Shown here piece after piece: positions 43,404-61,555 of a stretch of 64,000 nucleotides of DNA. A program made the position numbers and the translations under genes. Below the pieces are notes generated by a model, which made no database searches, had not been told where the DNA came from, and was given only the letters and a program-made list of their open reading frames with translations. Each line of letters begins with the position of its first letter. Within the stretch, counting starts at the first letter, position 1. This stretch comes from an uncultured Anaerolineales bacterium (GTDB lineage Bacteria > Chloroflexota > Anaerolineae > Anaerolineales > UBA6663): contig CAYZRP010000006.1 of assembly GCA_964480865.1 (NCBI GenBank), positions 4,064 to 68,063 on the forward strand, written 5' to 3'.

Positions 43404-43653
43404 GGTGGGTCCTTTTCTCGATCGGATGGATCGCCCTGACAACCCTATGACGCGCGACAGGCCCGACCTTGGACACTTGGGAGCGCCCACATATCGCCCT
43501 GACAGGATGATCGTCCACCGTTCGGGTGAGAAACGTCAGTGTAACCCGAAGTCTGATCGCGGGCATCCTAGTTAGGGCCTGACCCGCGCAGCATGGCTCT
43601 CGTTGCCAACCGTGCCTGGAGCAGACGTGCGTACTCCTTCTTTGTCCCACTTC

Positions 43654-45228: not shown

Positions 45229-45887
45229 GCGCGCAACCGCTGCGGATCGTCCTCGTCGACGACCACCAGATCCTGCGGGACGGCATCCGGGTGCTGCTCG
45301 AGGGTGAGCCCGGCGTTCGAGTGATCGGCGAGTGCGGCTCGGGCGTCGAGGCGCTTGAGTTGTGCGCGCGCGAGCAGCCCGACCTTGTCGTCCTCGACCT
45401 GAGCCTGCCCGACATGAGCGGGCTCGACGTCCTGCATCAACTCCAGGAGAAACAGCCGGCCGTGCGCGTGGTGGTGCTGTCGATGCACACCCAGCGCGAG
45501 TTCGTCCTGCAGGCCCTGGCCGGTGGCTGCGCGGCCTACGTGCCCAAGGCCACGGCCCACACCAGCCTGGTCGAGGCGATCCAGGCGGTGCGGCGCGGCG
45601 AGCGCTTCCTGCACCCCAAGGTCGCGGCCGTCCTGCTCGAGTCCTTTGGCGGCGACATGAGCGAAGTCCAGCAGTTCCAGGCGCTGTCGGACCGCGAGCG
45701 GGACGTGCTGCAGATGACGGCCTGGGGTTTCAACAGCCGCGAGATCGGCGAAAAGCTGGCCCTCAGCCCCAAGACCATCGAGACCTATCGGCAGCGCGCC
45801 ATGGAGAAACTCGGTCTTGAGCACCGGACGGATCTGATCCGCTTTGCCCTGCGAGCCGGCATTCTGGGCGAGCACGGCCCGGGCTGA
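45225..45887 (+). CDS. response regulator, NarL/LuxR family
   Basis: Receiver domain plus LuxR HTH (LSDRERDVLQMTAWGFNSREIG). Overlaps the kinase stop by 4 nt. Confidence 0.85.
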   Translation: MSAQPLRIVLVDDHQILRDGIRVLLEGEPGVRVIGECGSGVEALELCAREQPDLVVLDLSLPDMSGLDVLHQLQEKQPAVRVVVLSMHTQREFVLQALAGGCAAYVPKATAHTSLVEAIQAVRRGERFLHPKVAAVLLESFGGDMSEVQQFQALSDRERDVLQMTAWGFNSREIGEKLALSPKTIETYRQRAMEKLGLEHRTDLIRFALRAGILGEHGPG

Positions 45888-45995
45888 TCCCAACGGGTCC
45901 ACTCATTGCGCAACCCGAAGGAATCAGCGCGGGAAGCGGGTGCTCCGCCTGTCCCTTCCCGGCATGGCTGTGCAGTTCCGCCGGGTCGGGAAAAT

Positions 45996-46025
45996 CCGGA
46001 CAGGATTTCAGGTTTCGCCGGACAG
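45996..46025 (+). promoter_or_regulatory. direct repeat CCGGACAG x2 (22-bp phasing) upstream of rdhA
   Basis: CCGGACAG at 45996-46003 and 46018-46025. The first copy overlaps the inverted repeat AAATCC-N5-GGATTT. The sites lie about 100-125 nt upstream of the rdhA ATG. Confidence 0.3.
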
Positions 46026-46122
46026 AGAATCGGGTCTTTCCGCTCAGAGCGTTGCGTCGAAACCGTTACAGTCGTATCGACCCCTGGTCACAACGTATTC
46101 ATCATACCCAAGGAGGGAGTCG

Positions 46123-47544
46123 ATGAGCGACACAGACAAGGCCAAGCGGAAGTTTGGCCGACGAGAGTTCTTCAAGATGGCCGGCCTTGGCACCGGCGCG
46201 GCGGTGGCCGCGTCGTCGCTGCAACCGGTCAAGACGGCCAACGCCTCGGCCGCGCCGTACACGGATCCCGCTGGCCGGCCGGCCCGCCCGTGGTGGGTCA
46301 AGACGGTCGATCAGCCCACGACCGAGATCGACTGGGCCAAGATGAAGCGCTACAACGAGCGCTACGTCCAGGAAGAGGGCGCGGGCACGGTGCGCGGCGG
46401 CGGGTTTGCCGGTTATCTCGGCAAGGAAGAAGCCGAACGCCTGGTCAAGATGGGCGACGACAAGAACCTGCAACGGATCCGCGACAACGTCGACGGCTAC
46501 ACGCTCAAGGACTTCGCCCTGAGCGCCGGTCAGTCGGCCACAAGCGTCGGGCGCAGCTTCCTGGGCCCGCAGAAGGCCCAGACCCCCGAAGAGCGCGGCG
46601 TTCCGGCCTGGAAGGGCACGCCGGCCGAAGCGGCCAAGATGCTCCGCGCGGCGATGCGGCACATGGGCGCCTCGACGATCGGTTTCGTCGAGCTCGATGA
46701 CAACACCCGCAAGCTGATCTACTCGATCGATCCCGACGGGCACATCATGGAGTTCACCGACGACCCGGTGGCCTCCGAGACCGAGACGCATCGCTACATC
46801 CCCAATAGCTGCAAGTACGCGATCGTCTACACGGTCCAGATGTCGGAAGAGGCGATGAAGCGCTCGCCCACGATGACGGCTTCGCAGACGACGACCGGCG
46901 CGTATTCGCGCGGCGCGCAGATCGCGGCCGGCACCCAGGAGTTCCTGCGCTCGCTCGGATATCAGTGCCTGAGCGAGGCGTCGACAAACGCACTGGGCAT
47001 CGCCCCGGCCTTCGGTGTGCTCGCCGGCCTGGGCGAGATGTCGCGCATGAACCGCATGATCTCGCCCGAGTTCGGGCCCATGGTGCGCGTCTTCAAGATG
47101 CTCACCGATCTGCCGGTCGAGGTCGACAAGCCGATCAACGCCGGGATCATGGAGTTCTGCAAGTCTTGCAAGAAGTGCGCTGAGGCGTGCCCGTCGGGCG
47201 CCCTGAGCTTTGAGAGCGAGCCGTATTGGGAAACCAAGGGCGGCTGGAACAACCCGGGTCACAAGGCCTGGTTCGAAGACGCCGTCAAGTGCCGCACGTA
47301 CTGGGTCTCAGAGGCCGGCACGAACTGCGGCATCTGTTTCGGGGTGTGCCCGTTCTCCAAGAAGGACAAGGCCTGGATCCACGACTGGGTCAAGGCCGGC
47401 ACAAGCAGCGCTCCGTTCCTCGCGTCCTTCTTCCGCAGCATGGACGATGCCTTTGGGTACGGCGTCCAGAAGAGCGGCGAGGAATGGTGGAACCTGGATC
47501 AACCGGAATACGGCGTTGACAGTTCGATTGTCGTGAAGGGGTGA
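46123..47544 (+). CDS. rdhA: reductive dehalogenase catalytic subunit
   Basis: ATG at 46123 preceded by AAGGAGGGAG. Tat signal RREFFKMAGLG. Fe-S motifs CKSCKKCAEACP and C-x13-CGICFGVCP. Confidence 0.85.
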   Translation: MSDTDKAKRKFGRREFFKMAGLGTGAAVAASSLQPVKTANASAAPYTDPAGRPARPWWVKTVDQPTTEIDWAKMKRYNERYVQEEGAGTVRGGGFAGYLGKEEAERLVKMGDDKNLQRIRDNVDGYTLKDFALSAGQSATSVGRSFLGPQKAQTPEERGVPAWKGTPAEAAKMLRAAMRHMGASTIGFVELDDNTRKLIYSIDPDGHIMEFTDDPVASETETHRYIPNSCKYAIVYTVQMSEEAMKRSPTMTASQTTTGAYSRGAQIAAGTQEFLRSLGYQCLSEASTNALGIAPAFGVLAGLGEMSRMNRMISPEFGPMVRVFKMLTDLPVEVDKPINAGIMEFCKSCKKCAEACPSGALSFESEPYWETKGGWNNPGHKAWFEDAVKCRTYWVSEAGTNCGICFGVCPFSKKDKAWIHDWVKAGTSSAPFLASFFRSMDDAFGYGVQKSGEEWWNLDQPEYGVDSSIVVKG

Positions 47545-47548
47545 GGCC

Positions 47549-47767
47549 ATGAAGTCCTATACGCTTCAAATCGCAAAGCGCCCGTGGTACGAATGGGCGT
47601 TGTGGGTGGTGTGGTTCCTGGTCGAGATCTTTATCCTGCAGAACGCGATCGCCAGCGGCGCCGAGCTTGAGCCGCGCGCGGCCTCGATCTTCTGGATGAC
47701 CTTCATCGTCCTGTTGTTGGGCGGTGGCATCGTCTGGTTCGTGCGACGCGCGCGCCTGGCGAAGTAA
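47549..47767 (+). CDS. rdhB: reductive dehalogenase membrane anchor-like protein
   Basis: 72 aa with two hydrophobic helices. Starts 4 nt after the rdhA stop. The position and size are typical of RdhB. Confidence 0.65.
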   Translation: MKSYTLQIAKRPWYEWALWVVWFLVEIFILQNAIASGAELEPRAASIFWMTFIVLLLGGGIVWFVRRARLAK

Positions 47768-47797
47768 TTCCGCTCGAAGGCAAGCGTCTGATATCTG

Positions 47798-47823
47798 GAG
47801 AGGAAGGGCGATCCCTTCCTCTC
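47798..47823 (+). terminator. perfect 11-bp hairpin after rdhB (attenuator/stabiliser or weak terminator)
   Basis: GAGAGGAAGGG-cgat-CCCTTCCTCTC followed by CTTTC. It lies between rdhB and rdhC. Confidence 0.45.
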
Positions 47824-47838
47824 CTTTCGGCTACAGAG

Positions 47839-49071
47839 ATGACATCGATCCCGCCGACAGCCCCCGAGACCGATCGCGCCCCCGCCGGGCCGCGCGCCGA
47901 AAAATCGCGCCGCCAGCGCTGGCTGGTGCTCGCCACCCTGCTCGCCGTCGTGGCGGCCTGGGTCTATGGATGGCTGACGGCGGGCTTCGACGTGGCGCCC
48001 GAGGCCCTGGCGGCCATCGCCGGCGCCACCCGGGTTGAGGCTCGCGGTTCGATCTACTACGGCTACGACGGCGCCGGGCAGTTGGTCGGCTATGCGGGGA
48101 AGGGCGAGGCGCCGGGCTACGGCGGCCCGATCACGCTTGTCGTCGGGCTGGATCTCGCCGGCGCCGTGACCGAGGTGCGGGTCGTTCAGCAGCGCGAGAC
48201 ACCCAGCTTCTTCAGGCTGCTGGATCGCGAGGGCTACTACGACCAGTTCCAGGGTCAGCCGTACGACGCGAACTTCCAGCTCGGCCAGGGCATCGACGGA
48301 GTCAGCGGCGCGACCTTCAGCGCCGATGGCGTCGCCGCGGCGACGCGGCAGGCCATCCGGTCCGTGGCAGCCGAGGGTCTCGGGCAATCGCTGCCCGCCG
48401 ACGATGTCCCGATCCGTTTCGGCATCCCAGAAGTCGTCCTCATCCTGCTGTACGTTGTCGGCTACATCGGACACCGCCTGCGCAGCGCCCTCTGGCGCAC
48501 ACGTGTGCGCTGGGCGACGCTCCTGACCGGCCTTGTTGTCGTCGGCTTCATCTACACCATGCCGTTCACGATCACGCAGGTCGTATCGCTTCTCAGCGGC
48601 TACTGGCCCGACTGGCGCACCAACCTGTACTGGTACCTGCTCCTGGGCGGCATCGCCTTCGTCACGACGGTCGACGCCAAGAACCCGTACTGCAGCTGGT
48701 TCTGCCCGTTCGGAGCCTTTCAAGAGTGCCTGGGCACGATCTCGGGCGCGAAGCTGTATCGTCCCAGACAATGGGCTTCTGCGCTCACCTGGCTCCAGCG
48801 CGGGTTGGCCGGTGTGGCCATCGTGCTGGGGCTGGCGCTACGCCGACCGGGCGTGGCCGGGTATGAGCCCTTTGGCACGCTCTTCGATCTGCGCGGCACG
48901 ACCGTGCAGTGGGCCTTCCTGCTGCTCGTCGTGCTCGCCAGTCTTGTGATCTACCGACCGTTCTGCAACTACCTGTGCCCGATCGACCCCGTGGTGGAGT
49001 TCATCGCCGAGGTCCGGCGACAGGTCCGGGAAGGATGGCGCCGATGGCAGAGCCGCCACGCAAAGATCTGA
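47839..49071 (+). CDS. rdhC: RdhC/PceC-like membrane flavoprotein (FMN-binding domain + NosR/NapH-type polytopic Cys-motif domain)
   Basis: FMN_bind motif GIDGVSGATFS, about six TM helices, and the motifs CSWFCPFG and CNYLCP. Confidence 0.75.
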   Translation: MTSIPPTAPETDRAPAGPRAEKSRRQRWLVLATLLAVVAAWVYGWLTAGFDVAPEALAAIAGATRVEARGSIYYGYDGAGQLVGYAGKGEAPGYGGPITLVVGLDLAGAVTEVRVVQQRETPSFFRLLDREGYYDQFQGQPYDANFQLGQGIDGVSGATFSADGVAAATRQAIRSVAAEGLGQSLPADDVPIRFGIPEVVLILLYVVGYIGHRLRSALWRTRVRWATLLTGLVVVGFIYTMPFTITQVVSLLSGYWPDWRTNLYWYLLLGGIAFVTTVDAKNPYCSWFCPFGAFQECLGTISGAKLYRPRQWASALTWLQRGLAGVAIVLGLALRRPGVAGYEPFGTLFDLRGTTVQWAFLLLVVLASLVIYRPFCNYLCPIDPVVEFIAEVRRQVREGWRRWQSRHAKI

Positions 49072-49283
49072 AGCGGCCGTTCTTCGTCGCCTGGCTGGCG
49101 TTCTGCCTGGTGCTCGTGGTCCTGGTCTGGGTCGACAACCTCGGACCGGGCGAGGTTGCAGCGCCGCAGCCGGGCTTCGTGCGCAGCACCGCGCCGGTCA
49201 GCGTCGGCACGGTGACGCCAACTGTCAGCGTCGTGGCCACACCCGGCGAGGCGCCCACTCAAGATGTCACCGATGATCAGTGA
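49035..49283 (+). CDS. hypothetical small membrane protein
   Basis: ATG at 49035, one TM helix, and overlaps with both neighbouring genes. Weak call. Confidence 0.3.
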   Translation: MAPMAEPPRKDLKRPFFVAWLAFCLVLVVLVWVDNLGPGEVAAPQPGFVRSTAPVSVGTVTPTVSVVATPGEAPTQDVTDDQ

Positions 49284-50295
49284 GATAGCCCGTGTGAACA
49301 CTCATCCTGCCCGGGGTATCCGAGGCGTCTCGCGCCGCCGTTTTCTGAGGATCGTGGCGTTTGGCGGCCTCGCCGCCGGCCTCGGTGCCGCGACGGTCCG
49401 CCGACTGGCGCCGACAGCTGCGCGGGCCAGCCGGGTGCTGATGGGCACCGTGGTCAATCTGGCGATCGTCAGCGACGATGAACGCCGGGCAACCGAGGGC
49501 CTGACCGCGGCCTTCGCCGAGATGGAACGCCTGATTGCGCTGTTTGACCACCGCCGCCCGGAGAGCACGCTGGGGCGCCTCAACGCGTCAGGGTCGTTGA
49601 GCGAGCCGCCGGCCGAGTTTGTCGAGGTCCTGGCGCATGCGCTGGCCCTCAGTGCGTTGACCGACGGCGCTTTCGATGTCACAGTCCAACCCGTGATCGA
49701 CGCCTACCGCGACGGCATGACGATGGTTGACAGCCTGCGTGAGAGGATCGACTATCGACTGGTCGCGCTGAGCGATCGCGAGGTGCGCCTCGGCCGTCCC
49801 GGCATGGCGCTGACGTTCGATGGCCTCGCCAAGGGCCGCGTCGTCGACGGCGCGGTGGGCGCGTTGCGCTCGCTGGGCTTCGAGCGAGTCCTTGTCGAGG
49901 CCGGCGGCGACCTGTTTGCGTCGCGCACCGGCATCGATGGCCAACCCTGGCGCATCGGCATCCGTGACCCGCATGGCGCAGCCGACAATGCCGTCCTCAC
50001 ATTCGGGGCGGCCGATCTTGCCGTGGCGACGTCCGGCGACTATCTCAACGCCTTCACGATCGATCACGCGCTGCACCACATCATCGACCCGCGAACCCTG
50101 CGGTCGCCGGCGGAACTATCCAGCGCGACGGCGCTTGCGCCCACGGCCATGGCCGCCGATGCCCTGAGCACGGCCCTGCTCGTGCTCGGCGTCGATGCGG
50201 GCCTTGCCCTGGCGGAGTCGTTGCCGGGTGTAGAGGCCTTGCTGATCACCAAGGACGACCGACGTGTCGCCACGTCGGGCTTTCCGACTGCGTGA
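49264..50295 (+). CDS. apbE: FAD:protein FMN transferase (ApbE family) with Tat-type signal
   Basis: RRRFLRIVAFGGLAAGLG signal. ApbE-like core (..AFDVTVQP..ATSGDYLNAF..HIIDPRT). Confidence 0.8.
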   Translation: MSPMISEIARVNTHPARGIRGVSRRRFLRIVAFGGLAAGLGAATVRRLAPTAARASRVLMGTVVNLAIVSDDERRATEGLTAAFAEMERLIALFDHRRPESTLGRLNASGSLSEPPAEFVEVLAHALALSALTDGAFDVTVQPVIDAYRDGMTMVDSLRERIDYRLVALSDREVRLGRPGMALTFDGLAKGRVVDGAVGALRSLGFERVLVEAGGDLFASRTGIDGQPWRIGIRDPHGAADNAVLTFGAADLAVATSGDYLNAFTIDHALHHIIDPRTLRSPAELSSATALAPTAMAADALSTALLVLGVDAGLALAESLPGVEALLITKDDRRVATSGFPTA

Positions 50296-50317
50296 CAGGT
50301 GCGCTCAAGAGGATCCC

Positions 50318-51445
50318 ATGACCGATCACCCCACAGACCCGACCCTGGCCGAACCGTCGAGCGTCGCCCTCAAGGCTGCACTGGCGCGCGCTGAAGTTGA
50401 CGGCGACCTCGCTGCCCAGAACGTGCTCGCCGGAAAGCTCGGCCGCGCCCTGTTGGACGAGAACGAGGCGCTGCCGGCGTTGGCGTATTTCGAGCAGGGC
50501 GTCAAGATCGCGCAGCAACTTGACGACAAGGAGTCGGGCGCGCGGCATCTTGCCAATCAGGGCCTGGCGCTCGGTCAGATCGGGAACTACACCCTGGCCA
50601 TGCGCGCTTTCCGGAAAGCCTACGGTTTCGCGCGCGAGCTCTCGGACGATCCGCTGACGTTCGACCTGTTGCTGCGAATGGCGGAACTTGAGCGGGCCCG
50701 CAAGAACCCTGAGAGCGCGATCGGCCATCTCGAGGAGGCGCTCGACATCGCCAACCGTCATCGGAGCATCAGCCGCGCCCTGCGCGTCCATCTTGAGCAC
50801 GGCCAGGCGAGCTGGGATCTCGACGAGACCGACGTCGCCGTCGAGCACTTCGAGACGGCTCTGCGACTGGCGCGGGATGCCGGGGACGTCGCCGCACAGG
50901 GTCAGTGCCTGAACACCCTGGGCGCCTTCGCGCGCTCGCGTCGCGACATGAAGGGAGCCGCCGATTATTTCGCCGCGGCGCTGGCGCTCTCCCCGGCCGC
51001 GCTCTCAAAGCCGCAGCGATTGGCCCTCCTGGCTCAGCTCGGCGACATCCGCTTCAGCCAGGGCGAGTTTGACGCTTCGCGCGAGCTCTTCACCGAGGGG
51101 TTGACGATCGCCCAGAGCCTCGGCGATCGCGCCTCCGAATGCCGGATCCTGGGGAGCCTCGGCCTGATTGCGGCTGATCTCGGGGACTCAGACGAGGCCC
51201 TGCGCCTCGCCAATCAGGGCGTGGCCCTGGCCCGCGAGTTGGGCGATGCCCGGCTGCAGGGCGAACAACTGCTGTACCAGTCCATGGCGCTGAGCGACCA
51301 CGGCCTTGCTGAACAATCGCTTGAGGCCTGCGACGCGGCCATCGCCCTGTTTGAGAGCATCGAGGCCTCGTCACTTGTCCAGAAGGCGTACGAGCTGCGA
51401 GAAAAGCTGGTCAGCGAACCGGCTGACGATGCCGAAGACCTCTGA
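50318..51445 (+). CDS. tetratricopeptide-repeat protein
   Basis: ATG at 50318. Repeated ~34-40-aa helical units (..A..Y..AL.IA...GD...). Confidence 0.65.
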   Translation: MTDHPTDPTLAEPSSVALKAALARAEVDGDLAAQNVLAGKLGRALLDENEALPALAYFEQGVKIAQQLDDKESGARHLANQGLALGQIGNYTLAMRAFRKAYGFARELSDDPLTFDLLLRMAELERARKNPESAIGHLEEALDIANRHRSISRALRVHLEHGQASWDLDETDVAVEHFETALRLARDAGDVAAQGQCLNTLGAFARSRRDMKGAADYFAAALALSPAALSKPQRLALLAQLGDIRFSQGEFDASRELFTEGLTIAQSLGDRASECRILGSLGLIAADLGDSDEALRLANQGVALARELGDARLQGEQLLYQSMALSDHGLAEQSLEACDAAIALFESIEASSLVQKAYELREKLVSEPADDAEDL

Positions 51446-51745
51446 CCGGTCCGTGTTGGCCCACCCGTAGGGCGCGGTCGCACCACCCCAATCGTCTGGA
51501 ACCGTCCCGCTGACGCCGGGCGCGATCCGGTGACACGCTCGGCGCGACGGTAAACCTCGCCTCACGGCCTCCAACCGCTGTCTCTCGAGGCGCTTGCTCC
51601 TCAGGCGTCGGGCGCATCGCCGCGGTTGCCGGCTCTCCGCAGACGCACAACCGAGGTAAGGATTTCGGGCATCACCCCGTCTATACGCCAGAACCCGCAG
51701 GCCTGTTCGGGTGGCAACGCCTGCCTGCTGACGCTGGAGGTTGCG

Positions 51746-53470
51746 ATGGACATGATCCCCGAGCGCTATTCGGTCGCCATCATCGGTTCGGGCATGGGTG
51801 GCTCGACGCTGGCCAGCGTCCTCGCCCGGCAGGGGCTTTCGGTGATCGTCTTCGAGGGCGGGGTGCATCCACGCTTCACCATCGGCGAGTCCATGATCCT
51901 CGAGACGTCCGAGGCCATGCGGGCATTGGCCGAGTTCTACGACGTGCCTGAACTGGCCTACTACTCGTCCGAGAATTTCTACACCGACATCGGCACCTCG
52001 CACGGCGTCAAGCGCCACTTCAGCTTCGTCCATCACACGCCGGGCCGGCCCGCCACGGCCGAGCGCAGCCTGCAGGCCGTCATCCCGCGGATGCCGTACG
52101 GGCACGAGATCCACATCAACCGGCAGGACTCCGACTACTTCCTGACCTCGGTGGCCGTCTCGTACGGCGCCGACGTGCGCCAGGGCACATTGATCCAGGA
52201 TGTGCGCATCGGGCCGGACGGCGTCGAGATCGTGACCCAGAAGGGCGAGGTCTTCCACGCCGACTACGTCATCGATGCCGGCGGGATGAAGTCGCTCCTG
52301 GCTCAGCAGTTCGGGTGGCGTCATCGGGACATGCTGACCCACTCGCGCACGATCTTCACGCACATGATCGACGTGCCGTGCTTCACCGAGGTCTCGGCCG
52401 GGATGCGCGCCTCCGGCCATCCGTTTCGATTATCGGAGGGCACGCTGCATCATCTTTTCCGCGGGGGCTGGCTGTGGGTGATCCCGTTCAACAATCATCC
52501 GGCCGCCACGAACCCGCTGTGCAGCGTCGGCCTGCAGCTGGATCCGCGGCTGCATCCGCAACGACCCGACCTGTCGCCGGAGGCCGAGTTCCTGGACTTC
52601 ATTAAGGATTACCCCGATGTGCAGGCCCAGTTCGCGGGAGCCCGGGCGGTGCGCGACTGGATGCGCATCGATCGGCTGCAGTATTCGGCTCACCACATCG
52701 TTGGCGATCGCTGCGCGCTGCTGGCGCACGCCGCCGGGTTCGTCGATCCGCTGTACTCGAAAGGCCTGTACGTCACCCATGCCAGCCTGTTCCTGTTGGC
52801 GGACCTGCTGATCAAGGCGCACCGGACCGGGGATTATTCGGCAGCGGCGTTCGCGCCGCTCGAGCGCATGACCCTCGATTACGTCGGCATGCACGACAGG
52901 CTGGTCGCCAGTTCATTCAAGTCGTGGCGCAACTTCAAACTCTGGAACGCCTATGAGGTCCTCTGGCTGTTGGGGGCGTACCTGGAATACCTGCGCCTGA
53001 TCATCAACCGCTACCGCGCGAAGGGCGACCGCGGTCGTTACCTGGAGCTGATGCGGTCGCACCGGCTCGTCGGGGGCGGGTTCGACAAGTTCTTCGACGT
53101 GCAGGAGAAGATCGATGCGATCCTGGACGCCGTCGATCCCGATGACGAAGCCGCTGTCGATCGCGCGGTCGCGGCGATCAAGGCCGAGTTCGCGCGCTTT
53201 CCGTGGATCCCGACGACGATCCGCGACCTCCTGGAGGGCAAGAACCATCTGCCCGACAACAAGCTGCGCCTCAACCTGCTCAACCCGAAGACGGGCTTCT
53301 TCGGCGATGGCCCTTACCGCGAACACTTCTTCGGCGAGGCTACGCCGGTCGAGCTCCTGGCGCGGGCCGGGCAAGACCAGCTGCGCTACTCGGTTCCCGC
53401 GCTGAGAAACCGGCGTCGGCGCCGTGCCCGATTGGCCTGGCAGAGCCCCTCGGAGCGCCGACATGTTTGA
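51746..53470 (+). CDS. flavin-dependent halogenase
   Basis: ATG at 51746 preceded by GGAGG. GxGxxG (IIGSGMGG), WxWxIP (GGWLWVIPF) and FxxPxxSxG (FVDPLYSKG) motifs are all present. Confidence 0.8.
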
Positions 53471-54062
53471 CACCACGTTGCGCCAGGCCAAGGATCGCGT
53501 CGGAACGCCGCTCGCGTTGCGTCTCGGCGCCGTCTCGCCGAACGCCGTGTCGGTCGGCGGGTTCGTGGTCGGGCTCATCGCGGCCTGGCAGGCCAGCCAG
53601 GGGAACGGCGTCGCGGCCGTGATCCTGTGGCTGTTCAGCCGGATCCTCGACGGCCTCGACGGCCTGATCGCGCGCCTGCACGGAAAGCAAAGCGACTTCG
53701 GCGGCTACCTCGACATCGTGCTGGACTTCGTCGTCTACGCGGCCGTGCCAATCGGGTTGACGCTGAACGAGCCCGGACTGGATCGCTTCATCGCGCTTGC
53801 CGTTATGCTGTCGAGCTTCTACGTCAACGCGGCCTCGTGGATGATGCTGGCCGCGATCCTCGAGAAGCGCGGGCGTATCGAGGACGGGCTCACGACGGTC
53901 ACGATGCCGCCCGGCCTGATCGGCGCCCTCGAGACCATCGCGGCCTACACCGCCTTCTTGCTCTGGCCCGAGCAGACGGTGTGGTTGTTCAGTGTCTTCG
54001 CGGCCCTGGTGGGTGCCACGATCATCCAGCGACTCGTCTGGGCCTGGCGCCATCTGCGCTGA
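53463..54062 (+). CDS. CDP-alcohol phosphatidyltransferase family protein
   Basis: ATG at 53463 overlaps the halogenase 3' end by 8 nt. Motif [26 protein letters not shown] (DG-x2-AR-x8-G-x3-D-x3-D). Confidence 0.8.
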
Positions 54063-54085
54063 GGCTGAACAAGAGGGAACCTTTG

Positions 54086-54643
54086 ATGACTCATCTGCGA
54101 CTGGGCGAGCCCGCACCGGATTTCACGTTGACAACTGTGGAAGGCGAAGCGCTCACGCTTCGCGACGTTCTGGCGGACGGACGTTCGGTCGTGCTTGTCT
54201 TCCTCCGTCACCTGGGGTGTCTGCCCTGCCGCGCGCATGTGACCGAGTTGTGCAACCGAAGCCATACGCTCTCGGCCCTGAACGCTCGCGTGCTGGTTGT
54301 TTCGTTCGGGACGCTGCCGGCCGTGCAGCGCTGGCTCGCCGAGACCTGCGGCGAGTTTCGCGTCGGCATTGATCGCGATCGCTCGGTGTACACGGCCTAC
54401 GGCCTCGAGCGATCGTTCTGGCGCTCGCGCAGCCTGCGCACGCGCTGGTTCTACTTCCGCGCCTGGCTGGCCGGGACGCCGACCCACACGTCGCAGGGCG
54501 AGGACCTGTCGCAGCTCGGCGGCGACTTCATCGTCGATCCCGCCGGTCGGCTGCGCCTGGTCCACCCGAGCCGCGAGCCTGTCGATCGGCCCTCGGTCGA
54601 CCAGTTGATCGACTCGCTCACGGCGATCAAGGTTGAGTCTTAA
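54086..54643 (+). CDS. AhpC/TSA (redoxin) family thioredoxin-fold protein
   Basis: ATG at 54086. ..APDFTLTTVEGEALTL..VVLVFLRHLGCLPCRAH.. is redoxin-like. The 150-aa N-terminal extension in the track ORF is rejected. Confidence 0.7.
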   Translation: MTHLRLGEPAPDFTLTTVEGEALTLRDVLADGRSVVLVFLRHLGCLPCRAHVTELCNRSHTLSALNARVLVVSFGTLPAVQRWLAETCGEFRVGIDRDRSVYTAYGLERSFWRSRSLRTRWFYFRAWLAGTPTHTSQGEDLSQLGGDFIVDPAGRLRLVHPSREPVDRPSVDQLIDSLTAIKVES

Positions 54644-54879
54644 GTTTCACACGTGCTGCCGCTTGAAGGTCCACGGATTCTGGCCGCTCATTTCGCGAAT
54701 GGATGAGCTTCAACCCCAGTGGCTTTGCAGGGACCAGTTCGCGTCATTCGCGATATTCGCGGCAAGAGAACTCTGACCTGCCGGGAGGGTGTGTCGAACT
54801 GCAAGATCCCTCCCAATCGAGGTTGTTCATAGCCGGAGCGTGGTGTCATCCAGCCAATCCCGGGATCGACCGAGATCAG

Positions 54880-55917
54880 TCAGGCTTCGAGCGCGAAGAG
54901 GTGCTCGGCCGGAAAGCCGACGTGGACCGACGCGCCGTGCGCGAACATCGGTGCCGGCATCGCCAGCCGTGCCCGCACGACGAGATCCCCGACCGCGATC
55001 GTGTATTCCAACTGCTCGCCGCGAAACACGCACTCCACGACGGTTCCGACCCAGGTATTCGGCCCCGGCTCGGCCTGCACCTTGATGTGCTCCGGGCGGA
55101 TGGCAAAGAGGCCGTGTCCCGCGGGCAGGTCCGTGCCCAGGTGAAGCCGACCATGCGCGGTCTCGAGCCAGTCTGCCTCACGCCGCCCGCTGATGAAGGT
55201 CGTGATGCCCATGAAGCCGGCCACCGGTCGATGGGCCGGTCGATGAAAGAGGCGTTGCGGAGCGTCAAGGCCGATGATGGCGCCGTCTTGGATCACGGCC
55301 ATTCGATCCGACATCGCCATCGCTTCGCCGAGGTCGTGGGTTACCAGGATCGTCGTGATGGCGAGCTCGCGCTGCAGACTTCGGATCGCGGATTGCAGAT
55401 GCTGGCGCGCGGCGGTGTCGAGGCTGCTGAGGGGTTCATCCAGCAGGAGCACATTGGGCCGTGTGACGAGCGCCCGTGCCAGCGAGACGCGCTGTTGCTC
55501 GCCGCCTGAGAGTTGCGCGGGCCGCCGGCGCTCGATCCCGGGCAGGCCGATCAGGTCGAGCATCCGGCCGACCTCGCGCTGGATGTCGCGGGCGCTGTGC
55601 CCCTTGACCTTGAGCCCGAACCCGATGTTGTCGGCCACCGAGAGAAACGGGAACAGATACGCCTTCTGGAACATGAACACGGCGCCGCGCTTGTTGGGTG
55701 CGAGATCCAGGATCGACTCGCCATCGAAGTGCACGTCACCGGCATCGGGCCGTTCGAGGCCCGCGATCACTTTGAGCAGCGTGGACTTCCCCGCGCCTGA
55801 GGGGCCCAGGAGCGCGACAAGCTCGCCGGGCACCACCGACAGAGACAGGTCGGCCAGCACCGGTGCGCCGCGGCCGGGATAGCGTTTATGGAGGGCGATC
55901 AGGTCGACGCGGGTCAT
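54880..55917 (-). CDS. ABC transporter ATP-binding protein (PotA/FbpC-like)
   Basis: ATG at 55917. Walker A GPSGAGKST, signature LSGGEQQR, Walker B LLLDEP. C-terminal TOBE-like domain. Confidence 0.85.
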   Translation of the reverse strand: MTRVDLIALHKRYPGRGAPVLADLSLSVVPGELVALLGPSGAGKSTLLKVIAGLERPDAGDVHFDGESILDLAPNKRGAVFMFQKAYLFPFLSVADNIGFGLKVKGHSARDIQREVGRMLDLIGLPGIERRRPAQLSGGEQQRVSLARALVTRPNVLLLDEPLSSLDTAARQHLQSAIRSLQRELAITTILVTHDLGEAMAMSDRMAVIQDGAIIGLDAPQRLFHRPAHRPVAGFMGITTFISGRREADWLETAHGRLHLGTDLPAGHGLFAIRPEHIKVQAEPGPNTWVGTVVECVFRGEQLEYTIAVGDLVVRARLAMPAPMFAHGASVHVGFPAEHLFALEA

Positions 55918-56714
55918 CAGAAGGGCTCGTGGATGGGACCGTCGGGCTGGCGCAGCTGCCACGCGGTCGCGGCGATGACCACCAAAGGCGGCCCCAGAAA
56001 GATGAGCGAGAGCGCGGCGGTCGTGGCCGGGTTGCCGCCGGCTGCGGCCGAGAAGACGAGCACGGGCAGAGTCAGGATGCGTCCCGAGCCCACCAGCAAC
56101 GTCAACAGGTACTGGCTCCACGAGATCAGGAACGCAAACAACCCGGCCACCAGCAGGCCCGGCGCGAGCAGGGGCAGGCTGATCGTGAGCAGCGTGCGCA
56201 GGCGGCCCGCGCCCAGGGCCAACGCCTGATGCTCGAAACCTTCGTCATAGCGGGCAAAGGCCCCGGCCAGCGTGAAGATCACGTAGGGCAGGGTCGGGAC
56301 GAGATGGGCGAGGATGACGCCGATGAGCGTGCCGGCCAGCCCGGCCCTGAGGAAGAAGATGTTGAGGCCCATGCCGATGGCCAGCGGCGGCACCACGGTC
56401 GGGAGGAAGAGCAAGGTCCAGGCCGCCTGACGTCCCGCGAACCGGCGCAGGCCCAGCACGCGCGCGGCCGGGTAACCGATCGCGAGCGACAACGCCGTGA
56501 CAGCGATCGCGATCGTCAGACCGTCGCGAGCACCGGCGATGACCTGCGGGTCGCTCAGGGTGCGTTGCAGAGTCGTGATCGTCCACTCGGTCGGAAACGG
56601 CTGCGGGTAGAACCAGCGCAGCGACAACGCCGACAGCGCGAAGACCCCCAGCGGCGCGAGCAGCGCGACCGCCAGGCCGCCTCGCCCGGCTCGGTGCAGC
56701 AGCGCGCGCCTCAC
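55917..56714 (-). CDS. ABC transporter permease
   Basis: 265 aa with six TM helices. Overlaps both neighbouring genes. Confidence 0.8.
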   Translation of the reverse strand: MRRALLHRAGRGGLAVALLAPLGVFALSALSLRWFYPQPFPTEWTITTLQRTLSDPQVIAGARDGLTIAIAVTALSLAIGYPAARVLGLRRFAGRQAAWTLLFLPTVVPPLAIGMGLNIFFLRAGLAGTLIGVILAHLVPTLPYVIFTLAGAFARYDEGFEHQALALGAGRLRTLLTISLPLLAPGLLVAGLFAFLISWSQYLLTLLVGSGRILTLPVLVFSAAAGGNPATTAALSLIFLGPPLVVIAATAWQLRQPDGPIHEPF

Positions 56715-57649
56715 GCGTCAGCACTCCGGCGCTGAGCCAGCAGCGCCACGCCAACCACGAACAGCGTGACGATCAGGCTGATCGCCATCCCATCCGCGCG
56801 CGCGTGAAGATCGGGGTCGTTGAAGAAGCGCAGCGCCAGCACCGGCAACATCCGCGGATACGTGACACCGAGCAGCGCGGGCACCTCATAGCTGCTGAAC
56901 ACAAAGCCGAAGACCAGCAACGCGCCGGACGTCAGCGCCGGCGCGATCAGGGGCAAGGTGACGAGGCGCAGCCGCTGCCAGCGTGTCGCGCCCAGGTTCT
57001 CGGCGACCCACCCATAGGCGCCGGGCTGAGCGCGCAGGACGGCCAACAGCAACAGGGTCAGAAAGGGCGTCTCCTTGGTCACGTACTGCAGCAGGATCCC
57101 GATCCCAAACCGATCGCGAACCAGGACCGGGAAGTCCGCCGGGATCTGGATCCAACCCAGCGCCGCAACCCACCGCGCGAGGAGGCCGCTCTGAGCCAGC
57201 AGGAGCAGGAGCAGCACCGACCACACGAGATGCGGGAACGCCAGGTTCCAGTTCAAGACGAACGTGACGCTCGGCGAAGCCGCCTGACGCCGTTCGGTCA
57301 GCCAGAGCGCCAGCGCCACGGCCAACGCCGAAGCGAGAACCGTGGATCCGGCGCTGACCCAGAGCGAGAAGGCGAGCGAGCCCCAGAACTCACGCCCGGC
57401 CAGGCCTTCGCCGAGCGCGAGCTGGCGATAGGCCTCGAGGCTCGGCGTGGTCTGCCCGATCTCGGGCTGAAATCCGACGCTCTGCGCCACGCCATAGCCG
57501 AGGCCGACGCCGACCAGCACAGTCACCAGGACCAGAGCCGGGGCCAGCGCCAACCACGGCGCCAGGAGCGCGCCGCGTGAGACACGCGCGCCGGGCCGAA
57601 CACGCGCCTCGCGTGGAACACGCGCCTCGCGTGGAACACGCGCCCTCAC
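56711..57649 (-). CDS. ABC transporter permease (true start probably downstream of 57649, e.g. TTG at 57553)
   Basis: Six TM helices. The first ~30 codons of the ORF are the tandem palindromic repeat directly after the SBP stop and are unlikely to be coding. Confidence 0.7.
   Translation of the reverse strand: MRARVPREARVPREARVRPGARVSRGALLAPWLALAPALVLVTVLVGVGLGYGVAQSVGFQPEIGQTTPSLEAYRQLALGEGLAGREFWGSLAFSLWVSAGSTVLASALAVALALWLTERRQAASPSVTFVLNWNLAFPHLVWSVLLLLLLAQSGLLARWVAALGWIQIPADFPVLVRDRFGIGILLQYVTKETPFLTLLLLAVLRAQPGAYGWVAENLGATRWQRLRLVTLPLIAPALTSGALLVFGFVFSSYEVPALLGVTYPRMLPVLALRFFNDPDLHARADGMAISLIVTLFVVGVALLAQRRSADA
57598..57645. repeat. 18-nt tandem repeat (2.7 copies), each unit an inverted repeat CACGCG-cct-CGCGTG
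   Basis: GAACACGCGCCTCGCGTG at 57598-57615 and 57616-57633, with a partial third copy running to 57645. It abuts the SBP stop codon (57646-57648). Confidence 0.7.
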
Positions 57650-58935
57650 TTCTGCACCACCTCCGCCAGCCAGCCCTGTTCGACAAGGTTCTGGTATTCG
57701 GCGGCCGTGTCGCCGACCAGCGAACGCGCGAGATCCGCCGCCGGCGTGGCCGAGTCGCCCAGGCGCGTGGCCGAGGACTTGAGGTGCTCGATGGCGGCCG
57801 ACCCGCTGACTCGAGTCACGTCGATGGCATAGCCCAGGCCGAAGCCGTTCTCGGGCAGGATCTGCGCGGCCTGGAACTCGGGCTCGAGGAGCAGGTTGGC
57901 GAGCACCAACGCCGCGGCCTTGTGCGGCGCGTTGGCCGGGATCGCGACGTAGTTGAAGTCGCCGATCATGTTCGCATCGAAGACGAAGGCCCGCGATGTC
58001 GCCGGGAGCAGCCCGGCCTGGATGCCCGTGCCCGCGCCGGTGATGTCGTTGGTCATGCTGAAGTCGACCTCGCGATTGGCGAACAGGCCCTTGAGCTCCG
58101 CTTCATCCTTTGGATAGGTCTCGCCCTGGCGCCACAGGCACGGCTCGAGCCCGTTGAGGTATCCCCACAACTCAGACGCCCAGCGCTCCCACGTCGCAGG
58201 ATCGAACGACTGCCACGCGGCGGGGCCACCGCTGAGTTCGTACAGCGCGCCCTTGACGAACCGGGTCCCGAGGAAGCCGCCCGGCCCGGGCGCGATGTAC
58301 GTGAACCGGCCCGGGTGTTCGCAGGCCCAGGTCTTGAGCTCCGCGTAGGAGCGGGGCAGATCGGCCGCCGTCATTCGTTCGGAGTCGTAGACGAACTGGA
58401 ACTGCGCCGACGACCACGGGCTCTCGTAGGTCTCGACGGGGTGCCCGAAGTCGAGGTTGAGGGCCGGGTTGTCCCAGTCGACAAGGGCGCTGTTGGGCAG
58501 ACGGCGAGACCAGCCGCCATAGAGCAGGTCGGCCTGCCGCAGGGTGAAGAAGTTCTCACCGTTGATCCAGATCAGATCGACGACGCCCGGGTCGACGCCG
58601 GCCTGCTTCTCGCTGAGCACCTGGTTGACGGCGTCGACCGTGTCGGCCACCGGAACGCGGTTGAGCGTGATGCCGTAGCGTTCCTTCAGGGCCTTGCCGT
58701 AGAAGCCGTCGACGAAGGCGTTGATGCTGTCAGAGCCGCCCCAGATGTACCAGTTGACGGTCTGGCCGCGAGCTGCAGCGATGACGCTGTCCCAGTCGTC
58801 GAGAGCCGGGTCCGAGCTGGTGGTCTCGTGGGTTGGCGCCGGCACGGTTGTGGGCGCCGTGGGTTGGGGCGGCGTGCCAGCGCAAGCCGCCAGGAAGGCA
58901 GCGATCAGGATCAGAAGACTGGGTCGCAATCGCAT
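57646..58935 (-). CDS. ABC transporter substrate-binding lipoprotein
   Basis: ATG at 58935 preceded by AAGGGAG (MRLRPSLLILIAAFLAAC lipobox). Family-1 solute-binding-like. Confidence 0.8.
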   Translation of the reverse strand: MRLRPSLLILIAAFLAACAGTPPQPTAPTTVPAPTHETTSSDPALDDWDSVIAAARGQTVNWYIWGGSDSINAFVDGFYGKALKERYGITLNRVPVADTVDAVNQVLSEKQAGVDPGVVDLIWINGENFFTLRQADLLYGGWSRRLPNSALVDWDNPALNLDFGHPVETYESPWSSAQFQFVYDSERMTAADLPRSYAELKTWACEHPGRFTYIAPGPGGFLGTRFVKGALYELSGGPAAWQSFDPATWERWASELWGYLNGLEPCLWRQGETYPKDEAELKGLFANREVDFSMTNDITGAGTGIQAGLLPATSRAFVFDANMIGDFNYVAIPANAPHKAAALVLANLLLEPEFQAAQILPENGFGLGYAIDVTRVSGSAAIEHLKSSATRLGDSATPAADLARSLVGDTAAEYQNLVEQGWLAEVVQK

Positions 58936-58958
58936 CAGTTGGGCTCCCTTTTGCATGA

Positions 58959-60389
58959 CTATTTTGAACCGACGACCGGTCGTGCGAAACGGTAGCGCAG
59001 GTAGGCGCCGATCTCGCGGCTCAGGTGGGTCAACGTCTCGCGCAGGAAGAGATCGCCGACCTTGAGGATCCCGCTCGAGTAGGTGGGATAGGGGTACACC
59101 AGCCGCTGCAGCTGATAGAGCGAGATCCGCTGGCTCATCGCGAGGGTGAAGAGCGAGATCATCTCCGACGCGCGTGGCCCGACGATGGTGGCGTGCAGGA
59201 TCTGGCCGGTCAGGCGCACCGCATCGACGATGATGAAGCCGTTTTCGACGTCGTCGGTGTAGCCGCGATCGGTCTGCGTCTTAAAGTCCACGCGCACGCG
59301 GGTGACGGCCTCTGGGTGACAGCGCTGCGCGAGCTGCTGCGCCGACAGGCCGACCGTGGCGACCTCGGGGTCGCTGAAGGTCGCGCTCGGGAACAGCGGC
59401 TCCTGGCGCGCGAGCGGCAGCCACGGGAAGGCGATCCGTTGGGTCACGCGCCGGCCCTGGGCGTTGGCCGAATGCGTGAAGGCCGAGGTGGGTGTGACGT
59501 CGCCGATAGCGTAGACGCCCTTGACGCTGGTCTCTCCGTAGCTGTTCACCAGGATGCCCTGTCGCGGATCGGTGCGGATCCCGGCGGTTTCGAGGCCGAG
59601 CTGATCGATGTTGCGCACGCGCCCGACGGCGACCAGGACTTTGTCGACGTCCGTCAGCGTGATCTCGTCTGAGCCGGTCTCGATTGTGAGCGCCCGCGTC
59701 GCAGCATCGAATCTTTTCGCGGCGGAATCGCAGTGCAGGGTGATCCCGCGCCGACATAGTTCGGCCTGGATGGCTTCCGAGGCTTCGGGGATCGCTCTGG
59801 CCAATGGCCGCCGGTCGCGCGTGCACAGAGTGACGCGGGTGCCGAGCTTGTGGAACGCGAACGCCATCTCGAGCGCGATCACGCCGGCGCCGACGATCAC
59901 GAGATGCTCGGGCACCGCGCGCAGATCGAACAGGCTCTCGTTGGTGAGGATCATCTCGGCCGGCATTCCCGGGATGTCGATCAGACGCGGGCGGGCGCCG
60001 GTGGCGATGACGATGTGATCGCCCGACATCTGGCGCGTGCCTTCCGGACCGGTGACCTCGAGCGTCTTCGGCCCGACGAAGCGTGCCCGGCCGCGCACGA
60101 AGGTCAGGTTCGGCGTGTGTTCGACCTCCTCGGTCTCCTTGTCGCGTAACGCGTCGCGCTTGCGGGTTACCTCGCGCGCGACAGCATCTGGATCCATGCC
60201 GGGCTTGAAGTGCCTGGCCAGGTGGATGAGCGTCTTCGAGGGCACACAGCCGACGTTGGTGCAGTCGCCGCCGACGTGAAGGGCTTCGATCAACGTCACG
60301 GGCCGGCCGAGGCCCGCGAGCCCGATGGCGACCGTCATCCCGCCTGAGCCGGACCCAATGACGATATGGGGGTGATGTTCGGTTGTCAT
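58959..60389 (-). CDS. class I pyridine nucleotide-disulfide oxidoreductase (dihydrolipoamide dehydrogenase / mercuric reductase-like)
   Basis: ATG at 60389. FAD motif IVIGSGSGG, redox disulfide GGDCTNVGCVPSK, NAD motif VIVGAGVIALE. Confidence 0.85.
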   Translation of the reverse strand: MTTEHHPHIVIGSGSGGMTVAIGLAGLGRPVTLIEALHVGGDCTNVGCVPSKTLIHLARHFKPGMDPDAVAREVTRKRDALRDKETEEVEHTPNLTFVRGRARFVGPKTLEVTGPEGTRQMSGDHIVIATGARPRLIDIPGMPAEMILTNESLFDLRAVPEHLVIVGAGVIALEMAFAFHKLGTRVTLCTRDRRPLARAIPEASEAIQAELCRRGITLHCDSAAKRFDAATRALTIETGSDEITLTDVDKVLVAVGRVRNIDQLGLETAGIRTDPRQGILVNSYGETSVKGVYAIGDVTPTSAFTHSANAQGRRVTQRIAFPWLPLARQEPLFPSATFSDPEVATVGLSAQQLAQRCHPEAVTRVRVDFKTQTDRGYTDDVENGFIIVDAVRLTGQILHATIVGPRASEMISLFTLAMSQRISLYQLQRLVYPYPTYSSGILKVGDLFLRETLTHLSREIGAYLRYRFARPVVGSK

Positions 60390-61114
60390 GCGGACGTCCC
60401 TTCGCGTCGGCGGAACCATTGAGCCAGGAGCAGGCTGAGCGCAAACACGGCCAGCGATGACAGCAAAGTCACCGGGTTGAGCGTCGGCAGTGAGCCATCG
60501 AACCGTTCGATCGAAGCGCCGAACCCGACGAAGGCCAGGGTGCCCGGGATGGAACCCAGCGCCGTCGCCAACAAGAACGGGAGGAACTTGATGCGCAGGA
60601 AGCCGGCCACATACGTGACGAGATCGTAGGGCAGGAAGATGAACCGCATGATCAGGACGGTCTCAAAGCTCCTGTCGCGCAGCCGGGCCGTGTAGCGCTC
60701 GATCCAGTTCGTCGTGCCGGCTTCGGGGATCAGGCCCTTGCCGAAGAAGCGCCCGAGCAGATAGGCCAGGGCCGTCGAGGCGTTGCTGGCCAGGATCGTG
60801 TAGAGGACACCCAGCGTGGGCCCGAACACATGACCGCCCAGCACGGTCAGCACCGTGGAAGGGAAGAAGATGAACGGGCGGACCACATACAGCACGATAT
60901 AGAGCAGCGGCCCCCAAAACGACGACCGGAGGAAGTCCGCCAGGCGTGTGGCCACGTCGAGCGGCGACAGATTCTGGCTCAGGGTGTACCCGAAATACGT
61001 CGCCAGAAGACCGAGCCACACGCCGCCCGCGACAATCTGAAGAAGGTGGCGTCTGGCCCAGCCCGGGCCGGATCGAGAAGGCGAACTCAAAGTCGGTGTT
61101 TCCATGATCCCCAT
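60386..61114 (-). CDS. TVP38/TMEM64 (DedA-related) family membrane protein
   Basis: ..FFPSTVLTVLGGHVFGPTLGVLYTILASNASTALAYLLGRFFG.. A 4-nt overlap links it to the oxidoreductase gene. Confidence 0.8.
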   Translation of the reverse strand: MGIMETPTLSSPSRSGPGWARRHLLQIVAGGVWLGLLATYFGYTLSQNLSPLDVATRLADFLRSSFWGPLLYIVLYVVRPFIFFPSTVLTVLGGHVFGPTLGVLYTILASNASTALAYLLGRFFGKGLIPEAGTTNWIERYTARLRDRSFETVLIMRFIFLPYDLVTYVAGFLRIKFLPFLLATALGSIPGTLAFVGFGASIERFDGSLPTLNPVTLLSSLAVFALSLLLAQWFRRREGTSA

Positions 61115-61359: not shown

Positions 61360-61555
61360 TATTGGAGTGGTCGCCAGCGGGAGCCAGGTCGGTCGCTGGT
61401 TAGCCGTTATCGGATCGCGTCCATCTGGCGAACTGGATCGGCGGCTATTGGGCTCTAGACGACGTGAACAGGGCGATTCTTACCCCGCGGGCCTATGGTG
61501 AGCAGCCCGTCGTCAGGGCGTGATGGAGTTGGGGAGGGTCGACGGAGGCGAGCGG

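Follow-up and report, generated by a model that had tools for sequence, protein, structure and literature searches.

The window, a 64,000-nucleotide (nt) stretch of contig CAYZRP010000006.1 from an uncultured Anaerolineales bacterium, carries on its forward strand a gene coding for a flavin-dependent halogenase (FDH) of the PltM/CtcP type (51746-53470; ATG at 51746, TGA at 53468-53470; 574 amino acids, aa). This gene heads a three-gene operon, in which it is followed by genes for a YnjF-like CDP-alcohol phosphotransferase (53463-54062, ATG at 53463; 199 aa) and for a SelL-related, AhpC-TSA_2 type redoxin of thioredoxin fold with a CLPC motif (54086-54643, ATG at 54086; 185 aa). An earlier note on this DNA had described the three forward-strand genes and the three halogenase signatures of the first product, and both observations were borne out. 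The note did not foresee that the trio is half of a bigger module, which also comprises a DedA protein, a disulfide reductase, an importer and a pair formed by an extracytoplasmic function (ECF) sigma factor and an anti-sigma factor.

In a phmmer search of the PDB, the halogenase matched CtcP, from the chlortetracycline pathway, at 1e-103 and the phloroglucinol halogenase PltM at 8e-91. Pyrrole halogenases that depend on a carrier appeared at approximately 1e-24 and tryptophan halogenases were barely detectable. The signatures were inspected in two alignments of homologues (A1 and A4, with 11 and 31 sequences). The flavin adenine dinucleotide (FAD) motif GxGxxG (IIGSGMGG; G14, G16 and G19) and the WxWxIP motif (GWLWVIPF; W242, W244, I246 and P247) were invariant in both, as were D334, S338 and G340 of the FxxPxxSxG motif (FVDPLYSKG). 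Moreover, K89, located within GVKRHFSF, aligned in both phmmer alignments with the catalytic lysine of PltM and CtcP (Lys87 and Lys98, respectively; PMC12400496) and was invariant throughout the subfamily (A1 and A4), so that the check for the catalytic lysine proposed in the earlier note came out in favor of a halogenase. The AlphaFold (AF2) model of the protein (pLDDT 75, pTM 0.80) superposed in Foldseek on CtcP with a TM score of 0.82 over 544 columns and on PltM with a TM score of 0.75, compared with at most approximately 0.45 for flavin monooxygenases. Based on the CtcP and PltM matches, the aligned lysine, the invariant motifs and the CtcP-like predicted fold, the open reading frame (ORF) at 51746-53470 was accepted as a real halogenase, i.e., as judged by sequence and model, a genuine two-component FDH of PltM/CtcP architecture and no monooxygenase look-alike. 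Enzymes of this architecture use free phenol- or pyrrole-like small molecules and not carrier-bound substrates.

Although its nearest characterized relatives in the searches were CtcP and PltM, the neighbor-joining tree placed these two enzymes elsewhere and the window FDH in a separate clade, formed by members from Chloroflexota, some cyanobacteria and a few other metagenome-assembled genomes (MAGs) and marked by a common C-terminal motif. This motif, ARL-x-WQ, lies near the end of the protein, was kept across the subfamily and was found neither in CtcP nor in PltM. The identity with the two enzymes was 31-34% over the full length (Foldseek), with phmmer matches restricted to residues 7-431. 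In a large search against 1.8 billion cluster representatives, a handful of clusters matched the FDH over its full length and the rest covered the first ~420 residues only. Among the best 120 database matches, which shared 70-95% identity with the window FDH, the few named sources were Chloroflexota, Anaerolineales or Caldilineaceae, and members are labeled in databases as ‘tetracycline 7-halogenase’ or ‘tryptophan 7-halogenase’. Judging from these comparisons, the protein founds a subfamily of its own and is the orthologue of no characterized enzyme. The C-terminal 140 residues were considered as a novel domain, a candidate that was rejected, as this region, although diverged in sequence, superposes on the C-terminal helical region of CtcP. 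The end of the protein (residues ~545-574, encoded at 53380-53470) is a strongly basic tail, modeled with low confidence, for which a membrane-surface or partner-binding role is possible.

The phosphotransferase gene begins before the halogenase gene ends. The 8-nt overlap between its start and the FDH stop (shared string ATGTTTGA), reported in the earlier note, was confirmed and is annotated likewise in two other loci (L004 and L006), and the homologues of the transferase align from residue 1 of the 199-aa protein. The CDP-alcohol motif is complete (D-x2-DG-x2-AR-x8-G-x3-D-x3-D) and the match to Pfam PF01066 reached 49.3 bits (cut-off 22), yet the protein fell under the cut-off of every named NCBIfam phospholipid synthase (PgsA, PssA, PIP/AIP synthase, Pcs and ClsA), with archaetidylinositol phosphate synthase as the top-scoring synthase family (67 bits, cut-off 180). 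The nearest solved structures were those of the CDP-inositol enzymes DIPPS (4mnd) and AF2299. The third gene, described previously as encoding an AhpC/TSA-like thioredoxin-fold protein, was indeed assigned to this group (AhpC-TSA, 65 bits) and, more precisely, to the SelL-related redox proteins (NCBIfam NF040769, 146.9 bits, cut-off 120), with BCP thiol peroxidase and ResA as top PDB matches. A long ORF starting with GTG at 53627 was rejected as the redoxin gene, and ATG 54086 was taken as the real start, in agreement with the gene call in L006.

The other arm of the FDH module is a convergent operon (DedA-reductase-ABC importer) encoded on the reverse strand. Read in its own direction, it starts with a DedA/VTT-domain membrane protein similar to YdjX (60386-61114; PF09335, 86 bits), followed by a class-I flavoprotein disulfide reductase (58959-60419) with a Pfam Pyr_redox_2 and a dimerization domain and a CxxxxC motif, which scored below the NCBIfam cut-offs for lipoamide dehydrogenase, MerA, glutathione reductase, mycothione reductase and RclA. 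The ATP-binding cassette (ABC) importer comprises a YnjB-family periplasmic solute-binding protein (57646-58956; NCBIfam PRK11622, 402 bits, cut-off 203), two permeases (56711-57649 and 55917-56714) that match two halves of Escherichia coli YnjC and whose BPD_transp_1 domain is annotated in L006, and a YnjD-like ATPase with a TOBE_2 domain (54880-55917). The start of the ATPase was inferred from its homologues (gene call of 345 aa in L006), the raw ORF reaching 56121. A PDB sequence search with the binding protein found no solved relative and hence gave no hint of the ligand. Beyond the DedA gene, also on the reverse strand, lie the genes for a soluble anti-sigma factor of the zinc anti-sigma (ZAS) type (61556-61873; 105 aa), whose HxxxCxxC motif reads HLDHCPDC in the translation, and for an ECF-type sigma factor (61901-62635) with Sigma70_r2 and Sigma70_r4_2 domains. 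Pfam zf-HC2 gave no match in the window anti-sigma factor and weak matches in the module-side homologues of L001 and L004. A sigma factor and an HxxxCxxC anti-sigma factor adjoin the module in the window and in L001, L004, L006, L167 and L168.

In order to compare the gene neighborhoods, 80 genomic loci gathered with an FDH profile, together with several contigs obtained by exact protein look-up, were analyzed by tblastn and by unbiased all-against-all clustering of every ORF. Among the 49 loci of the FDH subfamily, many of which are on short contigs, the YnjF-like transferase was found in 31 and the SelL-like redoxin in 26, so that the coupling of the three genes noticed in the window is strongly conserved. 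The class-I disulfide reductase was present in 22 of these loci, DedA/VTT proteins in 21, components of the ABC importer in 17-20, the ECF sigma factor in 13 and the small anti-sigma factor in 12. Less frequent families were thioredoxin (8 loci), DUF1684 and a S-adenosylmethionine (SAM) methyltransferase (7 each), YjeF_N (6) and the short-chain dehydrogenase/reductase (SDR) family (5, with a neighboring gene pair in 4 of them). The gene order was reshuffled between lineages while the genes remained clustered. In Chloroflexales-type loci (L020, L045, L052 and L038) and in L026, both arms were found as a single operon on one strand, in the order reductase-FDH-DedA-transferase-DedA-binding protein-permeases-ATPase-SDR-SDR. 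It is chiefly this interleaving of genes from both arms in single operons that argues for one functional unit, and the comparison of the loci indicates that the FDH trio is one arm of a larger module conserved across Chloroflexota.

Several genes associated with the FDH in other genomes have no counterpart next to it here. A YdjM/zinc-phospholipase-C-like membrane protein, encoded in 21 of the 49 loci and usually just 3' of the FDH or redoxin gene (e.g., L015 11804-12385, L043 11729-12280 and L001 14476-15060), had no detectable copy in the whole window. Elsewhere the FDH gene is preceded by thioredoxin, DUF1684, glutaredoxin-like, DsbD_TM or YjeF_N genes, with a DsbA-like gene near (L009 8536-9981, L004 8094-9979, L167 5668-8286 and L168 11939-13366), none of which was seen around the window module. 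In a Calothrix MAG (L040 1984-7009), an FDH gene without transferase or redoxin comes after genes for a MerR regulator, a DUF6326 protein and a SAM methyltransferase, and a methyltransferase similar to the latter recurs in 7 Chloroflexota module loci. Apart from the MerR and methyltransferase genes of L040, the neighbors in the solo-FDH loci L003 and L023 (Caldilineaceae) and L040 were uninformative.

A promoter-like motif precedes both arms in the window: TAAGGAT-N16-TCTA (51657-51683, forward strand) ends 63 nt 5' of the FDH start codon, and a second copy, TAAGAAT-N16-TCTA (61456-61482, reverse strand), lies upstream of the DedA-reductase-ABC operon. The pattern TAAGRAY-N16-TCTW had these two matches in 64 kb against 0.01 expected, one ahead of each convergent operon. 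In at least 11 loci, a slightly relaxed form was found at a distance of 48-98 nt from the gene that opens the FDH operon (FDH, thioredoxin or DUF1684, depending on the locus), on its 5' side, and an equivalent motif was found ahead of the VTT (DedA) or reductase operons in L006, L167 and L016. Recurrences of the motif were recorded at L001 9941, L006 9912, L010 2129, L054 9956, L008 9062 and L016 8166. Moreover, the last ~110 nt before the FDH ATG were ~98% identical between the window and L006, a relative with 95% FDH identity, compared with ~70% further upstream. An Rfam scan of the whole window found no riboswitch or other known RNA, including ahead of the FDH gene, and a scan of 51300-55000 for sigma-70 promoters and intrinsic terminators found nothing on the forward strand between the FDH gene and the preceding gene, which codes for a tetratricopeptide repeat (TPR) protein. 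Since the sigma factor adjoins the module and the motif precedes both operons, these sequence features point to a common specialized promoter for both arms, for which the neighboring ECF sigma factor would be the simplest candidate.

Part of the module has a parallel in E. coli K-12, where the gene order is ydjX (DedA)-ydjY-ydjZ (DedA)-ynjA (AhpD-like, CxxC)-ynjB-ynjC-ynjD-ynjE, with ynjF (CDP-alcohol transferase) alongside. Comparison of this locus (L087; NC_000913.3, 1833401-1841403) with positions 53463-61114 of the window showed identities of 27-40%: 40% between the binding protein and YnjB (E 3e-59), 37% between the ABC ATPase and YnjD, 33% between the transferase and YnjF (E 5e-20), its closest E. 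coli protein among those tested, and 27% between the DedA protein and YdjX. Both window permeases matched YnjC (blastp, 1.5e-14 and 1.7e-11). The two loci thus share a cluster of DedA, YnjB-family importer, YnjF-type transferase and small CxxC protein, although the latter is AhpD-like in E. coli and AhpC/TSA-like in the window. The E. coli locus lacks the halogenase, the flavoprotein disulfide reductase and the ECF/ZAS pair, and carries YdjY and the rhodanese YnjE in addition. The sequence similarity suggests an ancient functional association of importer, DedA protein, CDP-alcohol transferase and small CxxC protein, which Chloroflexota would have extended by the halogenase, the disulfide reductase and further proteins of thiol-redox function. 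The literature searched contained no functional work on ynjF or on the ydjX/ynjB operon.

The likeness of the window FDH to PltM and CtcP comprises the near-full-length fold, the FAD, WxWxIP and FxxPxxSxG motifs, the catalytic lysine, a C-terminal helical region over the substrate cleft and the lack of need for a carrier protein. Besides its separate clade, its own C-terminal motif and its basic tail, it differs from them in that it is encoded outside a biosynthetic gene cluster and without a flavin reductase beside it, is highly conserved across the phylum and shares its operon with genes for a membrane phosphotransferase and a CxxC redoxin. The regulatory pair resembles SigR-RsrA of Streptomyces, an ECF sigma/ZAS system of the thiol-stress response, in that a soluble HxxxCxxC anti-sigma factor of approximately 100 aa is encoded beside an ECF sigma factor and that many of the presumed target genes code for thioredoxin-fold proteins and disulfide reductases. 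The window motif TAAGRAN-N16-TCTW differs from the SigR consensus, the window sigma factor is a putative regulator of the module, and we know of no halogenase in any SigR-RsrA-type regulon. Halogenases paired with thiol-dependent dehalogenases are known from bromopyrrole biosynthesis (Bmp2/Bmp8), and iodothyronine deiodinases are peroxiredoxin-like. As in the Bmp2/Bmp8 type of pair, the FDH gene in the window lies beside one for a Cys protein of thioredoxin/peroxiredoxin fold and, by analogy, reductive removal of a halogen by the redoxin could be taken as a lead. Bmp8 belongs to a different fold family from the window redoxin, and the latter scored 24 bits on the deiodinase-family NCBIfam model (cut-off 250).

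On balance, we somewhat favor the reading that the FDH belongs to a stress-induced module of phosphotransferase, redox and importer functions, with the nearby reductive-dehalogenase genes as a separate unit. By analogy with ZAS-controlled sigma factors of the SigR-RsrA type, the ECF sigma factor would switch on both arms, probably under thiol-oxidative or electrophile stress. The importer may bring in a small alcohol or other solute, and the transferase would join this compound, imported or endogenous, through a phosphodiester to a membrane or polyol acceptor. The DedA protein might then move the lipid-linked species, and the FDH, with FADH2, O2 and halide, would halogenate an aromatic or enolic compound that takes part in that chemistry. 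Reducing power could come from the redoxin, thioredoxin and disulfide reductase; alternatively, these would remove or replace the halogen (cryptic halogenation). The weakest point of this mechanism is the chemical nature of its substrate and product.

Several observations weigh against the stress-module reading. About one third of the subfamily loci (L003, L012 and L023 from Caldilineaceae as well as the cyanobacterial ones) show the FDH by itself. Inspection of the module genes revealed no canonical flavin reductase, the class-I disulfide reductase being of a different family, and for no member of the FDH subfamily is a product, a substrate or a dependence on halide recorded. Furthermore, the step involving a lipid or head group is deduced from the protein family and from comparison with an E. 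coli locus that is itself of unknown function, and as DIPPS and AF2299 use soluble CDP-inositol, a non-lipid product of the transferase is equally possible. Regarding regulation, visual inspection contributed to the derivation of the promoter motif, which is missing from some lineages and from the ECF sigma factor's own promoter. Finally, the three independent juxtapositions with reductive-dehalogenase genes described below are more numerous than would be expected if a rare gene fell within 10 kb at random (rough estimate well <1).

Upstream of the module, and outside it, a respiratory reductive-dehalogenase (rdh) cassette occupies positions 43603-51445 of the forward strand. It encodes a histidine kinase (HK, 43603-45228) and a LuxR-type response regulator (RR, 45225-45887), RdhA (approximately 46126-47544) with the twin-arginine (Tat) signal RREFFK (TIGR02486, 300 bits; PceA, 1.6e-56), the small anchor RdhB (47549-47767), an RdhC-like FMN_bind/Fer4_5 protein (47839-49071), ApbE (49264-50295) and the TPR protein (50264-51445), whose gene overlaps apbE by 32 nt and is separated from the FDH gene by a spacer of 300 nt. 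The earlier note had placed the halogen-removing enzyme about 1.4 kb from the halogenase, which is the distance to the apbE stop (50295); rdhA ends at 47544, 4.2 kb upstream. In a reciprocal search, RdhA retrieved 79 metagenomic loci (approximately 15-20 with usable flanks), and the order HK-RR-RdhA-RdhB-RdhC-ApbE-TPR was kept in more than 40 metagenome loci (cassette loci L088-L138). Because the cassette has its own HK-RR pair and its own conserved gene order and occurs mostly apart from the module, it was judged to be a separate, independently regulated respiratory unit, clearly separable from the module, whose adjacency here is secondary, although there may be a loose ecological or functional link between FDH and rdh genes. 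With its Tat-signal RdhA, RdhB, RdhC-like protein, ApbE and two-component regulator it is like respiratory rdh operons of the PceA type, from which it differs in the conserved TPR gene and in its occurrence outside classical Dehalococcoidia, namely in Anaerolineales (L049) and Ca. Leptofilum (L043). It apparently constitutes a portable HK-RR-RdhABC-ApbE-TPR cassette with the TPR gene as a constant member. The TPR gene was rejected as a member of the FDH module, as it follows ApbE in rdh cassettes, and the TPR gene that accompanies the sigma factor in L167 has no sequence relationship to it.

The proximity of these two units led the earlier note to suggest a self-contained locus for the production and consumption of organohalide. 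In this reading, the product of the FDH, whether free or phospho-linked, would be the physiological substrate or inducer of the neighboring respiratory RdhA. We consider this improbable. The cassette does adjoin the module in three of ~48 module lineages, each arranged differently (upstream of the FDH gene in the window and L006; in L043, upstream of the DedA gene, from which a glucoamylase gene separates it; and downstream of the redoxin gene in L049, in the order FDH-transferase-redoxin-HK-RR-RdhA), which is the excess over random placement mentioned above. This does not amount to a consistent co-localization. The other 45 lineages have no rdhA within 10 kb of the module, sister loci of all three juxtaposed lineages are without the cassette (for L043: L035, L037 and L071), and none of the ~15-20 informative rdh loci showed FDH, transferase or redoxin genes nearby. 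In L090, a close relative of the window cassette (79% identity for RdhA, 83% for HK and 76% for TPR), an unrelated opposite-strand gene, and no FDH gene, follows the TPR gene. The two units also differ in regulation, the cassette having its own HK-RR pair and the FDH its own conserved leader with a promoter-like motif that is not present in the cassette. A related version, in which the module makes a halogenated compound (e.g., a phospho-linked lipid head group or cofactor) that is reduced, or sensed through HK-RR, in those lineages that acquired the cassette, is held to be just as improbable; if true, it would represent an intracellular halogen cycle from a stress-induced halogenase to organohalide respiration, and selection, instead of chance, would account for the three juxtapositions. 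That a halogenase gene lies close by is in itself no evidence of a halogen cycle. A serious rival, albeit one that we regard as unlikely, is a role in defense or detoxification, in which FDH and thiol-redox proteins would process exogenous phenolics, electrophiles or reactive halogen species without any lipid product. The route proposed for it, unlikely to the same degree, would start with halogenation; thiol-dependent dehalogenation or conjugation would come next, then O-methylation and finally export or import. The clustering of the FDH with thioredoxin, glutaredoxin-like, DsbD_TM and DsbA-like proteins, SelL-like redoxin and disulfide reductases is in line with such a role, as are the adjoining ZAS anti-sigma factor and the SAM methyltransferase, which in L040 is encoded directly 5' of the FDH. 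The distant resemblance of the disulfide reductase to RclA and hypothiocyanite reductase points the same way, although its similarity to RclA is no better than that to other class-I reductases. Detoxification leaves unexplained, however, the tight and often overlapping coupling of FDH and CDP-alcohol transferase genes and the recurrent DedA and YdjM/phospholipase-C-like genes.

Two further alternatives concern the enzyme itself. The FDH could belong to a small cryptic secondary-metabolite cluster as an ordinary tailoring enzyme, with transferase and redoxin as mere neighbors. In favor of this are the secondary-metabolic roles of its closest characterized relatives, CtcP and PltM (and of the related halogenase PrnC), and the labels that sources give to its homologues. 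The genomic context renders it highly improbable, since neither the examined ORFs of the window nor the 10-kb flanks of related loci yielded a scaffold enzyme (polyketide synthase, PKS; non-ribosomal peptide synthetase, NRPS; carrier protein; terpene; or core of ribosomally synthesized and post-translationally modified peptides). The ten large ORFs scanned between 8.7 and 43 kb and the genes of 43.6-63.1 kb contained no PKS or NRPS, in keeping with the earlier statement that NRPS, PKS and carrier-protein genes are missing nearby. The conserved translational coupling and the 70-75% identity between Anaerolineales and Caldilineaceae loci, with conserved neighbors across classes, are atypical of accessory clusters. 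Also highly improbable is a halogenase fold that no longer halogenates and acts on a lipid as a flavin monooxygenase or reductase, in the manner of geranylgeranyl reductases. Weak matches to the geranylgeranyl reductase family (65 bits, cut-off 159) and to FAD_binding_3, as well as the lipid flavor of the genomic context, would fit such an enzyme, but the catalytic lysine and the WxWxIP and FxxPxxSxG motifs are invariant across the subfamily, and the predicted full-length fold is far closer to CtcP and PltM than to any monooxygenase. The WxWxIP motif keeps the substrate away from the flavin.

To our knowledge, FDHs are treated as tailoring enzymes of secondary-metabolite clusters. The FDH of the window departs from that view, being strongly conserved in Chloroflexota, lacking scaffold genes around it and being translationally coupled to a membrane phosphotransferase; it sits among genes for thiol-redox and DedA proteins and an importer, and appears to be under ECF/anti-sigma control. 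Should the stress-module reading prove right, a major phylum with few cultured members would use halogenation for housekeeping or for responding to stress, perhaps as part of its membrane chemistry. No description of the module was found in the literature searched, nor was any paper that pairs a halogenase with a CDP-alcohol phosphatidyltransferase or any functional work on Chloroflexi halogenases. The same literature held no description of the FDH subfamily, of its stress-module context outside biosynthetic gene clusters or of the parallel with the E. coli ydj/ynj genes; the protein families themselves are all known, and databases label the FDH only generically. The module offers a first contextual handle on the uncharacterized E. 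coli genes ydjX, ydjZ, ynjBCD and ynjF, as well as a well-defined new FDH clade for biocatalysis screening.

Other genes of the window were recorded away from the module. At 37872-39005 (forward strand), some 5 kb ahead of the rdh cassette, lies the gene for a member of the URO-D family, to which corrinoid-dependent methyltransferases also belong. Genes for an HMA-domain heavy-metal P-type ATPase (18763-21342, reverse strand), a chromate transporter (28210-29352, forward strand) and a cation P-type ATPase (30688-33417, forward strand) suggest that the central part of the window holds a metal-resistance region.

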